A DNA stretch of 41,294 nt from a virus (lineage: Duplodnaviria; Heunggongvirae; Uroviricota; Caudoviricetes). The notes below the pieces were generated by a model. That model worked only from the letters and a program-made list of their open reading frames with translations, made no database searches and had not been told where the DNA came from. The stretch's first letter is position 1; every line of letters begins with the position of its first letter. Below, one piece after another: positions 15,407 to 38,174 of the stretch. The DNA lies in the IMG/VR virus record IMGVR_UViG_3300033074_000010, positions 1 to 41,294 of that record. One strand, given 5' to 3'. Position numbers and translations under genes: made by a program.

Positions 15407-15450
15407 GGTTATTTCCTCTGTAAGTAAAATGTATATCACCGATGTAGTGA

Positions 15451-15479
15451 ATAGTACCCTATTATATTGGGGTGCGCAA
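15451..15479 (-). promoter_or_regulatory. promoter carrying conserved box (site 1)
   Basis: Read on - strand: TTGCGC, 17 nt, TACTAT; box ATATAATAGGGTACTATTCAC identical to site at 37131-37150. Confidence 0.45.
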
Positions 15480-15586
15480 GTAATGTGATAGAATAATTTT
15501 GCGCCTAGTGTCGCACACGAAAAGCGGGTGGTTCCCGTCTGGCGCGTCAATCTTAACCTGTAACCTCTTAACCAAAGGATTAAAGA

Positions 15587-16003
15587 ATGAAACTTTCTGA
15601 TTTTTATTTTGCCGATAAACACGCAGAAGGCCGCCGTATGCCCATTTTACTGCCGAGTGGTGAAGACTCCGGTGAATGGTTGCAGGTGATGGGGCCTGAT
15701 TGTGACGCCGCGGTTCGTGCTGGGCGTGCCTTTGTATCCGCTAACTTCGCACTAAAAGAACAACTCGAAGAGCTTGATGCGAAATGCAAGGCAAAGAATG
15801 ACTGGACCGAGTACAACGCAAAATATAACTGGATGGCGGAAGACCTAAACCGGCAACTGGCGGTCGAAGTTGTGACGGGCTGGTCCTTTGACGATACGTT
15901 CTCGAAAGAAGCTCTGGCGGCACTGCTTGGCCAGTACCGCGGGTTGGCGGAAGAAGTGGTTAAATACCACACCAAGCTCCGAGAAGAATTATCGGTAAAG
16001 TAG
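15587..16003 (+). CDS. tail assembly chaperone (putative, G-like)
   Basis: 138-aa ORF between major tail and tape measure genes; RBS AAAGGA. Confidence 0.45.
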   Translation: MKLSDFYFADKHAEGRRMPILLPSGEDSGEWLQVMGPDCDAAVRAGRAFVSANFALKEQLEELDAKCKAKNDWTEYNAKYNWMAEDLNRQLAVEVVTGWSFDDTFSKEALAALLGQYRGLAEEVVKYHTKLREELSVK

Positions 16004-16011
16004 ACGCGCTG

Positions 16012-16365
16012 TTGAAATATTTTTCGTGGCTCTATATCGAACTGCAGAAGAAGCAGAAGTTTGATGATATATCTAAGGGCCACGAAGCGGCGTTAATAGC
16101 GATGGGTATCATCGAAAAGGCGGAACGTAAGGAGCTAAAAGGCCCGGAGTGTCCGCCTGTTTTTTACCCGTTACTCGCTAAATACCGCGCCATTAAATTT
16201 CAACAGCGCGAAACAGCGGACCAGGTAGTTGTCTACCCGAGGGGGATGCTATCATGGGGCGACTTACAGGACTTCAAAGCAGCTACCGGAACAGACGTTA
16301 GTTTCTTTGAAGCGGATTTAATTATGGCGCTAGACGCCGTGTTCGAGGGCCGAGACGATGGCTGA
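16012..16365 (+). CDS. tail assembly chaperone extension (possible -1 frameshift T-like product) or separate TTG-start gene
   Basis: Reading frame open from 15964 in the -1 frame relative to 15587..16003; no ATG or RBS of its own; stop overlaps tape measure ATG. Confidence 0.35.
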   Translation: MKYFSWLYIELQKKQKFDDISKGHEAALIAMGIIEKAERKELKGPECPPVFYPLLAKYRAIKFQQRETADQVVVYPRGMLSWGDLQDFKAATGTDVSFFEADLIMALDAVFEGRDDG

Positions 16366-18547
16366 TACCGCATCGCTGGTAGCGAGAGTAACGGCGGAAG
16401 GTGCCGCTACTGCCGCCAAGCAATTAGATAACTTTGCTGCAAGTGCAACAAAGGCCGAAGCCGCTACCGATAAAATGACGCCGGCGGTTAAAGAAGCGGC
16501 GGCAACAACACCTAAATTCGGTAGCGCAGTAACAAACGTTTCCTACCAGTTGCAGGACTTTATTGTTCAGGTAAGCAGCGGGCAGTCCGCTTTACTTGCG
16601 TTTAGCCAACAAGCCCCCCAATTGCTCTCCGGCTTCGGTGCGCTCGGGGCGGTGCTGGGTATCGCCGCGGCTGCCACCAGTGTGTTGTATAACGCTTTTG
16701 GCTCGACTAACGAAGCCACTAAAAACCTTGAGTCATCTACTAAAGCGCTTAACGCTGTTATCCAGACATCTAAAACCGGTGTCACAGAGTTATCTGACAG
16801 CTACATCCAACTGGCTACCGGCGTAGAAACGGCAACCGCGTCACAGGCACAACTTGAAGCGGGCATTGCTGGTGCGGAAAACACGATTGCCGCTATGAAC
16901 GCCAAGCTGAAAGAAACGGCTGACATTAGCTATTTAATGTCCGGTTCTATCACTGGTGCTAATGATTCTCTGCAAAAAGGGCAGACCAACACCTCCAGCT
17001 ACACCGGATTCCTGTCGAGTCTGGCAGACCAGTTCGGTGTAACAAAACAGCAGGCAGAAGAGTTAATCCCGTTACTGGCGAGTGTAGCCGAGAAGCCTAC
17101 GCAAGATAACGTGCTGGCGCTTACCACTCGTATGGGCGAGCTTAGCTCTGTTACTGACAGCAAAGTCACCCCGGCGTTTCGTAATTTCCGTGCAGAGCTT
17201 CTCAACGCGATTGCTACACAAGATACTGCTAAAAAGTCGTTAGATATTCTCAAGGCGGCGCAATTAGGTCAGGCAGAAGCAACTAACTCCAGCACAGAAG
17301 CAACTAAGCAGAACATCACTAAGATGATTGAGTACGCCCAGGCCCAGTTACAAGGTGCTAAAGCGGTGCTCGCATTTAACGCTGCTCAGGACAAACAGCA
17401 ATTTGCTCAGTCCGGTGCTACAGCGGAGCAGATAGCGCAGTACAACGAATTAATTAACAAGCAGTACGAGAAAGACGTTGCTAACTACGACGCCGCTCAG
17501 CAGAAGAAAGCAGAGGCAGAAGCTAAATCGGCAGCGGCCCGCGCTAAGTCCGAAGCCGACAGACAAGCCGCGCAGGAAAAACAGGCAGATGCTTTCCTTA
17601 CGCTTGTTAAGAAACAGAACTCTTCGGAGGTAGAGCAAGTAACTATTGCTGCCGCGGAGAAGCAAAAGCAGTTAGACGATTATTACGCGAAAGGCCTGGT
17701 CTCTCAGCAAGAGTACGAAACGGCATCAGCAGATATAGCCAACGCTGCGCAAGAGAAAAAAGACGCTATTGTTGCTAAAGAACAAGAGCAACAGGCAAAA
17801 CGCCAGGAACAGGCTGACGCGTATCTGGCACAGTTACAGGCTAACTTCGAAGGTGAATCCGCAGAGCTTGACCGCCAGTATCAGGTAAAACAGGATAAGC
17901 TGGACAAGTTCCACGAAGAAGGCTTGATTAGCGAGGAAGATTACCAGAACGCTCTTGCGGACCTGCGCCAACAAAAAGCAGATGCACTAATCGCCGCCGA
18001 CCTGTCGACCTGGGGCACTATCGCGGCTAACGTTAAAAGTGCAGCGAGCGAGAACACCGCTTTGTATAAAGCCGCGGCTATCACCGAAGCCACCATTTCA
18101 ACATATCTGGCGGCTACAAAAGCACTGGCAACTGGCGGACCAATCCTCGGCCCAATCCTCGCGGCGTCGACTATCGCGCTCGGTCTGGCTAACGTGGCTA
18201 AAATAAGTTCCGCGCGTGAACAGGGCGGTCAGTTATCTGCGGGGCAGGCTTCCACCATCGCCGAACGCGGTAAACCAGAAGTTATCATGCCCGCTGGTGC
18301 GTCACGAGTGCGCACCGCGCAGCAGATGAAGGAAATTATGGGGCAAAACGGGTCTTCTTCCGGCCCGTCTAATGTTACTATTGTGAACAACACGAGTTCT
18401 CAAATCGGCAACGTATCCACCGAGCAAGATGATGAAGGCCGTTTACGCATCATCATCGAAGAGCAAGTGGCGGCATCTTTGCAGAACAGTAACAGTAAGA
18501 TTAGCAAGGCCAGAAAGGCCACAAGAAACTCGCCGGGGTTTAAATAA
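16358..18547 (+). CDS. tail tape measure protein
   Basis: 729-aa Ala/Gln/Glu-rich predicted helical protein with hydrophobic segments, after chaperone ORFs. Confidence 0.8.
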   Translation: MADTASLVARVTAEGAATAAKQLDNFAASATKAEAATDKMTPAVKEAAATTPKFGSAVTNVSYQLQDFIVQVSSGQSALLAFSQQAPQLLSGFGALGAVLGIAAAATSVLYNAFGSTNEATKNLESSTKALNAVIQTSKTGVTELSDSYIQLATGVETATASQAQLEAGIAGAENTIAAMNAKLKETADISYLMSGSITGANDSLQKGQTNTSSYTGFLSSLADQFGVTKQQAEELIPLLASVAEKPTQDNVLALTTRMGELSSVTDSKVTPAFRNFRAELLNAIATQDTAKKSLDILKAAQLGQAEATNSSTEATKQNITKMIEYAQAQLQGAKAVLAFNAAQDKQQFAQSGATAEQIAQYNELINKQYEKDVANYDAAQQKKAEAEAKSAAARAKSEADRQAAQEKQADAFLTLVKKQNSSEVEQVTIAAAEKQKQLDDYYAKGLVSQQEYETASADIANAAQEKKDAIVAKEQEQQAKRQEQADAYLAQLQANFEGESAELDRQYQVKQDKLDKFHEEGLISEEDYQNALADLRQQKADALIAADLSTWGTIAANVKSAASENTALYKAAAITEATISTYLAATKALATGGPILGPILAASTIALGLANVAKISSAREQGGQLSAGQASTIAERGKPEVIMPAGASRVRTAQQMKEIMGQNGSSSGPSNVTIVNNTSSQIGNVSTEQDDEGRLRIIIEEQVAASLQNSNSKISKARKATRNSPGFK

Positions 18548-37636: not shown

Positions 37637-37831
37637 ATGAGTCCTTATAACCGGTTTCGTCTGGAGCGTCTACGTCGCGGATTAAGTAACGCTAAATTAG
37701 CTCTCGATATATGGGAGAGTACGCCATATTCTTCCTCGAAGGCATGGTTTGTAGCCCGTGCTAAAGCGTCCGTACAGTATCGCGAGTACAAGTTAAACAG
37801 TTTCCTTAAACACCACGGGGTAGAGCTATGA
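37637..37831 (+). CDS. hypothetical protein (64 aa)
   Basis: ATG 37637 after GGGGG; track ORF 37625..37831. Confidence 0.45.
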   Translation: MSPYNRFRLERLRRGLSNAKLALDIWESTPYSSSKAWFVARAKASVQYREYKLNSFLKHHGVEL

Positions 37832-37977
37832 GAGAAGCATTTGAACGGTGGGCCGTCGTCGAGGGTCTGCCGGTTAACAAGGGCTCGAAGAAAGAGTACC
37901 TGAACGTTAAGACGCGTCTCGCGTGGCGGGCGTGGAAAGCAGGAGTGCAAGCTCGTGCTGGTGTAACAGGTCAATAG
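37828..37977 (+). CDS. hypothetical small protein (49 aa)
   Basis: Hand-translated MREAFERWAVVEGLPVNKGSKKEYLNVKTRLAWRAWKAGVQARAGVTGQ; ATGA overlap; followed by terminator. Confidence 0.4.
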   Translation: MREAFERWAVVEGLPVNKGSKKEYLNVKTRLAWRAWKAGVQARAGVTGQ

Positions 37978-38000
37978 TTTAAGATTTTACTGAGTGACTT

Positions 38001-38030
38001 ACGCTGCTACACAGCAGCGTATCATTTTTC
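38001..38030 (+). terminator. rho-independent terminator
   Basis: Stem ACGCTGCT/AGCAGCGT (38001-38020), ACAC loop, then ATCATTTTTC. Confidence 0.6.
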
Positions 38031-38114
38031 TCATTTTTGTTCTATTTCACCAAACGCAACAATCGAAGCGACTATTGCAGGAGATGCAACAATACAAACA
38101 CCAATAAAATTTAC

Positions 38115-38143
38115 TTGCACACTAAGATAGAATAGGCTACTAT
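38115..38143 (+). promoter_or_regulatory. promoter with conserved box (site 7)
   Basis: TTGCAC (38115-38120), 17 nt, TACTAT (38138-38143); box AGAATAGGCTACTATTCAT; leader AAACGAGAGGAGAGA precedes ATG. Confidence 0.5.
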
Positions 38144-38174
38144 TCATTTACACAAACGAGAGGAGAGACAGAAG

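Follow-up and report, generated by a model that had tools for sequence, protein, structure and literature searches.

A dyad-symmetric box at seven promoters of a Kagunavirus genome as a candidate operator for a 434 Cro-like protein

Which protein, if any, reads the short inverted repeat AATAG-N4-CTATT that recurs at the promoters of a tailed phage? The window analysed here, positions 1 to 41,294 of the IMG/VR record IMGVR_UViG_3300033074_000010 (Caudoviricetes), is placed by megablast in the genus Kagunavirus (Guernseyvirinae), with about 90–93% identity to the Escherichia phages MirsaeidiM_Esher4, Snoke, fTaEco01 and Golestan. These phages are lytic siphophages. No integrase, CI-type repressor or RNA polymerase gene is annotated in the complete genomes of Snoke, fTaEco01 and SP-101, and lysogeny genes are not reported in published descriptions of such phages. 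For comparison, 80 IMG/VR loci around homologs of a Cro-like protein encoded at 33644–33859 and six GenBank genomes were used, each box was oriented by its promoter, and the arms of the box were surveyed over about 50 genomes. On balance, we favour the view that AATAG-N4-CTATT is an operator for a phage helix-turn-helix repressor dimer, most likely the 71-aa 434 Cro-like protein.

The core AATAGNNNNCTATT (AATAG-N4-CTATT) occurs in six exact copies in the window, against 0.02 expected, and none of 100 shuffled sequences reached six; a seventh copy, at 33597, carries one core mismatch (AATAT as its left arm). It is the most frequent and most over-represented 5-N(0–10)-5 palindrome in the whole window, the runners-up being terminator stems. 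A search with the 20-mer allowing up to three mismatches returned the six exact sites, the degenerate site at 33597 and two weak outliers. A position weight matrix built from the seven sites gave cleanly bimodal scores over both strands of the window, with 31.4–40.9 bits for the seven and 10.7 bits for the next best sequence. All seven sites listed in the preliminary description exist, one of them starting a base earlier than given (31452, not 31453). The conserved unit, described there as a box of about 20–21 bp, is smaller: only a 14-bp palindrome is common to all copies, and the outer parts of the 20-mer differ between two promoter classes, TATA belonging to the -10 element of class A and TCAC being found mostly in class B. 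Nor is every copy intergenic, as had been stated, since the -35 element, box and -10 element at 27891–27919 lie inside the last 10 codons of the VRR-NUC open reading frame (ORF) 27888–28175 (-), which ends ...VDTLIAHYYS before its stop codon. In fTaEco01, with 5.6% non-coding DNA, five of the seven cores are non-coding, one overlaps the 3' end of the VRR-NUC gene and one a dubious 41-aa ORF.

Class A comprises three leftward TTGACA-17-TATAGT promoters, which match the sigma70 consensus at 11 of 12 positions and are the three best sigma70 matches in the region. Copy 2 of the box (27893–27912 (-), core 27896–27909) is combined with a -35 element TTGACA at 27914–27919 and a -10 element TATAGT at 27891–27896, upstream of a 63-aa ORF and genes for a methyltransferase and an SNF2-type helicase. 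Copy 3 (31452–31471 (-), core 31455–31468; TTGACA 31473–31478, TATAGT 31450–31455) precedes the genes for the ssDNA-binding protein, DNA polymerase A and VRR-NUC. Copy 4 (33553–33572 (-), core 33556–33569; TTGACA 33574–33579, TATAGT 33551–33556), also a perfect operator, is divergent from the Cro-like gene and serves an operon for a 160-aa ORF and a PD-(D/E)XK exonuclease. Class B promoters have the form TTGC(A/G)C-17-TACTAT. Copy 1 (15447–15466 (-), core 15450–15463; -35 TTGCGC 15474–15479, -10 TACTAT 15451–15456) heads a leftward operon within the structural region, encoding a small membrane-like ORF, a metallophosphoesterase, a PNK/phosphatase and a dNMP kinase, and has orthologs in L002 (12650) and the Jerseyvirus L003 (13810). 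The other two class B promoters read rightward: copy 6 (37132–37151 (+), core 37135–37148; TTGCAC 37119–37124, TACTAT 37142–37147) leads to small ORFs from about 37182 to 37977, and copy 7 (38128–38147 (+), core 38131–38144; TTGCAC 38115–38120, TACTAT 38138–38143) to small ORFs starting with an ATG at 38175 and then, judging from the gene order in Snoke and fTaEco01, towards the HslV-like, holin and endolysin genes. The remaining copy 5 (33597–33616 (+), core 33600–33613) lies in the Cro-like gene's own promoter, which has no -35 element (CTTTTA at that position) and instead an extended -10 element, TGgTACTAT, with the TG at 33604–33605 and the -10 at 33607–33612; this TG arises from the G>T mismatch in the left arm of the box.

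Much of the promoter description made earlier stands in the light of these assignments. The TTGACA pairing holds at all three of its sites and the TTGC(A/G)C pairing at 15447, 37132 and 38128, the Cro-like gene's promoter lying outside both. The shared leader AAACGAGAGGAGAGA is present at 33525–33539 (-), downstream of copy 4, and at 38154–38168 (+), downstream of copy 7, and partly at 37158–37165; the separate promoter class of two RNA-like elements is confirmed as a box-less TTGACT-17-TAAGCT. A claim that one regulator controls the whole early regulon is too broad, as there is no box in 36727–37118, upstream of the operon of the HTH_17 protein and the primase-helicase, and the promoter at 38128 also leads towards lysis genes. 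The idea of a dimeric regulator acting on a dyad in core promoters is borne out in the signature of the sites, namely invariant arms, a free centre and two geometries; the binding itself is predicted from sequence.

This signature is best seen when the boxes of all genomes are aligned by promoter class. The class A logo, gTTGACa.ct.AATAG....CTATTATAgT, is based on 89 unique sequences and places the centre of the box at about -18.5, so that nearly the whole palindrome lies within the spacer between -35 and -10; both arms are invariant. In class B (CTTGCACaC....AtA.AATAGg.TACTATTCA; 63 unique sequences), the centre lies at about -12.5. Here, the left arm is wholly in the spacer, and it is invariant too, while the right arm is part of the -10 element TACTAT. 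Over 117 unique instances of the exact core, the arms do not vary, and 36 different tetramers are found between them. From one class to the other, the centre of the box moves by 6 bp, and the palindrome is used in either orientation relative to transcription. The box is kept at orthologous promoters in Kagunavirus and Jerseyvirus and partly in the Serratia phage Tsm2, and hence is common to phages of E. coli, Salmonella and Serratia. The sequence between the -35 and -10 elements is not read by sigma70. Invariant arms in this part of the promoter therefore point to selection beyond the needs of the promoter, and the combination of arms that do not vary, a centre that does and a register that shifts within the polymerase footprint argues for the site of a dimeric repressor, and not for a polymerase element or the site of a position-dependent activator. 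Likewise, two geometries and either orientation fit steric occlusion of the polymerase and do not fit an activator whose position matters.

The same sites have been listed before, under a different label. In Golestan, a PHIRE analysis gave seven 'conserved promoter sequences' (PMC7203180, Table S4), and in fBC-Eco01 seven 'phage RNAP promoters' with the consensus tgAATAGTa-ccTATTat-T (PMC9825357, Table S2); sequences and relative positions are the same as found here, with seven per genome, and neither paper mentions dyad symmetry, two geometries, operators or a regulator. Beyond these two tables, a search for literature on operators of Jersey-like phages or Guernseyvirinae and on Cro-like repressors of virulent phages returned nothing relevant. 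The tables support a reading in which the box is the phage's own promoter consensus, recognized by RNA polymerase itself with no dedicated regulator, its dyad being a by-product of -10-like sequences on both strands. This reading also gains from the overlap with the -10 element, to which the right arm contributes in class B and the flanking TATA in class A, and from the persistence of degenerate versions of the box at the same promoters in distant relatives. Where phage promoters of this kind would show one asymmetric consensus in a fixed register, however, the box has a palindromic core, two registers and both orientations, with canonical hexamers alongside. A phage polymerase cannot be the reader in phages that have no gene for it, and none was found in the annotated genomes of fTaEco01, Snoke and SP-101. 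As for the host enzyme, canonical -35 and -10 elements at 17-bp spacing already suffice for recognition by sigma70, spacer positions outside sigma70 recognition hold the invariant G/C of the arms and, in class B, the entire left arm, and box-less promoters coexist in the same genome. Hence, we regard the polymerase reading as quite unlikely. The motif is already catalogued, though mislabelled as promoters, and to read it as a repressor operator stays within textbook logic.

A related idea, that the dyad consists of two opposed -10 elements forming a bidirectional promoter, was rejected, as the opposite strand has no matching -35 element except at 37132 and the invariant G/C of the arms would go unexplained. 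The exception is a weak leftward TCGATA-17-TATATT (9 of 12 positions) at 37158–37130 (-), which lies across the 37132 box with the geometry of class A. Should this match be real, it would make the 37132 promoter bidirectional, and it could feed the HTH_17/primase operon, running antisense to the RNA-like element there.

Two candidate regulators had been proposed from the window, the Cro-like protein and an 'AlpA-like' protein, and Pfam confirms both as DNA-binding families (HTH_3 and HTH_17, respectively); the comparison across relatives favours the former and disfavours the latter. The Cro-like gene (33644–33859 (+), 71 aa) is followed by a terminator hairpin at 33848–33868, and two operators, copies 4 and 5, the centres of which are 44 bp apart, flank its promoters. 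Its product matches PF01381 HTH_3 (E 2.3e-12; 47.2 bits, the curated cut-off being 23) and can be aligned from end to end with 434 Cro, likewise of 71 aa (phmmer E 8e-6), as well as with the N-terminal domains of the 434 and P22 repressors; it retains the glutamine equivalent to Q28 of the 434 repressor. A single-sequence AlphaFold (AF2) model with a pLDDT of 85 contains five helices (5–17, 21–28, 32–39, 48–57 and 62–66). Foldseek matches this model best to 434 Cro, P22 c2, HipB, SinR and the controller proteins of restriction-modification (R-M) systems, with TM scores of 0.77–0.85 and 36–40% identity to 2cro and 3cro. By homology and predicted fold, the protein belongs to the 434 Cro-type HTH_3 proteins. 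The Cro and repressor proteins of 434 and the P22 family are dimeric binders of dyad operators. Operators of 434 are 14 bp long with conserved outer and variable central bases, and in P22 operators the four central bases are uncontacted; the box is built in the same way. All genomes with boxes that were examined, including those without HTH_17, have the Cro-like gene, and no other recognisable DNA-binding gene is common to them all.

The HTH_17 protein (36544–36714 (-); Pfam E 6e-10) could bind the box as a repressor or as a read-through factor that is loaded onto RNA polymerase, like AlpA or lambda Q, and carries it past the many terminators. Its distribution is attractive: it is found in 443 phage records, all of them Kagunavirus or Jerseyvirus, and only in genomes with the exact box, and it is 75–80% identical between these genera with a nearly invariant helix-turn-helix, matching the invariant box, whereas the Cro-like protein is far less conserved. 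The region upstream of its own gene is box-free, and a probable ortholog is classed as 'early' in RNA-seq of K1B4 (PMC12645636), the sole such data set for a relative, which covers 5–120 min over several infection rounds without promoter mapping and is too coarse for the box. However, the co-distribution of HTH_17 and box is confounded with phylogeny, and genomes exist in which the two are separated. An exchanged cassette upstream of the primase-helicase (L027 12559–13144 and L087, phage ST20, 6865–7450; compare 36135–36726 in the window) is known in ST20, GZMU_E2010 and L027, where a 47-aa Cys-rich, zinc-ribbon-like ORF and a 149-aa ORF without a Pfam match replace HTH_17 and its 77-aa neighbour. 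In the two of these examined for it, the cultured Kagunavirus ST20 and the metagenomic L027, boxes and Cro-like gene are kept. Tsm2 carries boxes at three orthologous promoters, and L068 and L075 have box regulons of their own; HTH_17 was not detected in any of the three. For a loaded antiterminator of the AlpA or Q type, the cognate protein is thus not always present and the position of the site is not fixed relative to the -10 element or start, and the 6-bp shift between the promoter classes likewise speaks against a geometry-dependent loading site. The existence of ST20 makes an essential role of HTH_17 unlikely, and HTH_17 was dropped as the main regulator given ST20, L027, Tsm2 and L068/L075; we consider it very improbable that it is the protein that binds the box.

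If the Cro-like protein is the regulator, its recognition helix and the half-site might be expected to vary together, and here the evidence points in both directions. In L068 and L075, with the helix SQGYISH, the sequence WTTAG-N4-CTAAW, one base different in the half-site, occurs at five sites, including the promoter of the Cro-like gene and one promoter of class A geometry. L068 even has two operators about 43 bp apart at its Cro-like gene, with its own half-site and in the same layout as in the window. In L083, L084 and L079 (helix SDSxLxK), xGTAG-N4-CTACA is found immediately upstream and downstream of the Cro gene, the flanks being otherwise diverged. These palindromes were picked post hoc, as the top palindrome of each locus, and shuffled sequences gave a three-copy top palindrome in 1 of 60 cases for L068, 0 of 60 for L083 and 16 of 60 for the AT-rich L077, so that their weight comes from position and recurrence and not from copy number. 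When PSDA-2 and further lineages with Cro-like proteins at 40–43% identity were searched de novo for palindromes, no exact over-represented one emerged; at orthologous promoters, PSDA-2 and other distant lineages have degenerate box-like sequences with 1–2 mismatches.

Several further points weigh, as do these shuffle rates, against the Cro-like protein as the reader of the box. Between Kagunavirus and Jerseyvirus, the identity of the Cro-like proteins is only 46–48%, and their recognition helices differ (SQGAINQ and SQSLITH, respectively), yet the box is identical. Conversely, the PSDA-2 helix TQSAISH is very like the Jersey one, yet the boxes of PSDA-2 are the degenerate ones just mentioned. 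The Cro-proximal operators are themselves degenerate in the Jerseyvirus and in Tsm2, and exact boxes co-distribute also with HTH_17 and with the 63-aa ORF, all distribution signals being confounded with phylogeny. A separate observation is that the Cro-like gene belongs, with the primase-helicase next to it, to a mosaic module (33644–36138 in the window, 32124–34561 in L003), with Kagunavirus–Jerseyvirus identities of 48% and 27%, respectively, compared with 75–95% for the flanking replication genes. An apparent 'Cro swap' in L082 (40% identity, boxes kept) turned out to be a partial tblastn artefact; L082 has the ordinary Jersey allele.

The same distributions bear on the proposal that yet another factor binds the box, either a small phage protein, such as that of the 63-aa ORF 27665–27856 (-), or a regulator of the Enterobacteriaceae host. 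Apart from Tsm2, all genomes with exact boxes have this ORF, and it is missing from loci without a box; many early ORFs are without known function, and the sharing of the box by phages of E. coli, Salmonella and Serratia would suit a host protein. The 63-aa ORF is the first gene after the 27893 promoter, is 95–100% identical between Kagunaviruses of E. coli and Jerseyviruses of Salmonella, and its product appears beta-rich from its sequence, with no Pfam match. It was rejected as the binder because no DNA-binding signature is seen in it and neither Tsm2 nor L068 has it, and it sits in a block that is highly conserved in any case (helicase 92%). Half-site changes in step with the Cro-like helix, in turn, would be left unexplained by a host factor. 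We know of no host regulator with a 5-N4-5 AATAG site, OxyR and MntR sites having a different spacing, and a host regulator was set aside. In our view, a factor of either kind is unlikely.

We therefore return to the Cro-like protein as the favoured regulator. From the sites, their promoter context and conservation, the family and predicted fold of the protein, and the distribution of box and regulator, we infer binding, repression over activation, an order of occupancy and a physiological role, which could fit together as follows. A repressor dimer would sit on the box, each subunit on one AATAG arm and the 4 bp in the centre without direct readout. As each box coincides in part with the spacer, the -10 element or both in a promoter of the host sigma70 type, the bound dimer would exclude RNA polymerase; activation is unlikely because the box overlaps the -10 element. 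The Cro-like protein would come from a weak extended -10 promoter, the one with the sole imperfect operator, and accumulating dimers may first occupy the six perfect operators and turn down the promoters of the genes for DNA replication, recombination and repair and for nucleotide metabolism, of small accessory genes and of the unit that runs on to lysis. At higher levels, the protein would repress its own promoter last. The outcome would be negative feedback on, or shut-down of, non-structural transcription without a CI partner, and the two box-less RNA-like elements would fall outside the regulon.

How does this compare with known regulators? Like 434 Cro, the protein is a single-domain HTH_3 protein of 71 aa, with full-length similarity and a matching predicted five-helix fold, and the box, like 434 operators, is a dyad of 14 bp, conserved at its outer positions and variable in the centre, that overlaps the core promoter, including the promoter of the regulator's own gene. 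In contrast to 434, the half-site is AATAG and not ACAA, single operators are dispersed over seven promoters and 23 kb of a virulent phage, and there is no divergent CI, no tripartite OR and no lysogeny module; binding, moreover, is a prediction here. The divergent gene at 33037–33519 (-), where a lambdoid CI would be sought, has no Pfam match, and the annotations of Snoke and fTaEco01 include no CI-like gene. The divergent promoters have two operators only, with no third, and no integrase or lysogeny module is annotated in the complete relatives. The box system would hence work like Cro at lambdoid early promoters, and it is not a CI/Cro switch. Single dispersed sites at separate transcription units (here seven sites at seven promoters, 15447–38147) are also a feature of the operators of the P1 C1 repressor and of the 'stoperators' of mycobacteriophage L5 gp71, with many sites around the genome for one small repressor. 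Their sites are asymmetric, however, and the repressors maintain lysogeny, many L5 sites being roadblocks within operons, whereas the sites described here have dyad symmetry and are placed within promoter cores, in a phage family without lysogeny genes in its annotated relatives. R-M controller (C) proteins are small HTH_3 dimers of similar fold as well (C.BclI, C.AhdI and C.Esp1396I among the Foldseek matches), and bind dyad C-boxes in their own promoter to time expression. Unlike the system considered here, they act at one promoter with paired boxes, which they activate and then repress.

Several other elements of the window and its relatives lie outside the seven-promoter set. The RNA-like elements at 7085–7330 and 36815–37060 are paralogs that share, besides their box-less promoter, a conserved core of about 110 nt (CCTGAGCTTGTGAAGTATGAACAAGCGACCGCGG...CGCTGACGCRTTCGGAAGGGCCATA), and each has a terminal hairpin; an Rfam search of the window, including these elements, gave no match at gathering thresholds. 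Another box-less promoter-like sequence, TTGACT-17-TATATT at 185–235, comes after the T-rich tail of a terminator (ATGACTAGTTGACTATTACC...CTATTATATT); it is conserved among relatives and is probably the promoter of the genes for packaging and structure. At 5454–5473, directly after a terminator hairpin, lies TCTTATAGTATGCTATTAAC, a weak eighth site that resembles the box with one core mismatch and whose central ATG is the start codon of the head morphogenesis ORF 5463–6539. It is conserved in fTaEco01 (2787) and appears in the Golestan PHIRE list as 'Before ORF3'; without promoter geometry, it could be a low-affinity site or a chance occurrence. In Golestan and fBC-Eco01, further box promoters precede leftward genes that are inserted among the head genes. 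One more exact box, CAATAGGTTACTATTT, occurs after tandem GGTGTAACAGG repeats with no obvious promoter in the Kagunavirus relatives L008 (13351), L010 (14750), L011 (14567) and L027 (14662), and is absent from the window. In the distant relative L086, four copies of TCAAC-N3-GTTGA are interleaved with GGTTGACCGCC repeats at 7221–7380, about 2.7 kb upstream of the Cro-like gene, an iteron-like array and possibly a replication origin.

Kagunaviruses and Jerseyviruses are isolated widely as agents for phage therapy and for biocontrol in food, and hardly any work exists on how they regulate their genes. If the box is indeed an operator for the Cro-like protein, the 'phage promoter' label in the literature would need to be corrected, and seven promoters and one regulator would be defined for testing or for engineering tunable or insulated expression in synthetic phages. 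The lineage-specific half-sites would provide a natural series of helix and operator pairs for specificity studies in the 434/P22 family. More tentatively, and with considerable doubt, we hypothesize that a lone 434 Cro-type protein, with no CI or lysogeny module, is the master timer of transcription throughout the Guernseyvirinae, a subfamily of strictly lytic phages in therapeutic use, and their relatives, its operator specificity co-evolving by lineage (AATAG, WTTAG and xGTAG), and that two registers and a weakened operator at an extended -10 element would provide a graded shut-off by a single protein. A Cro-type protein could then run a lytic programme without a CI partner.

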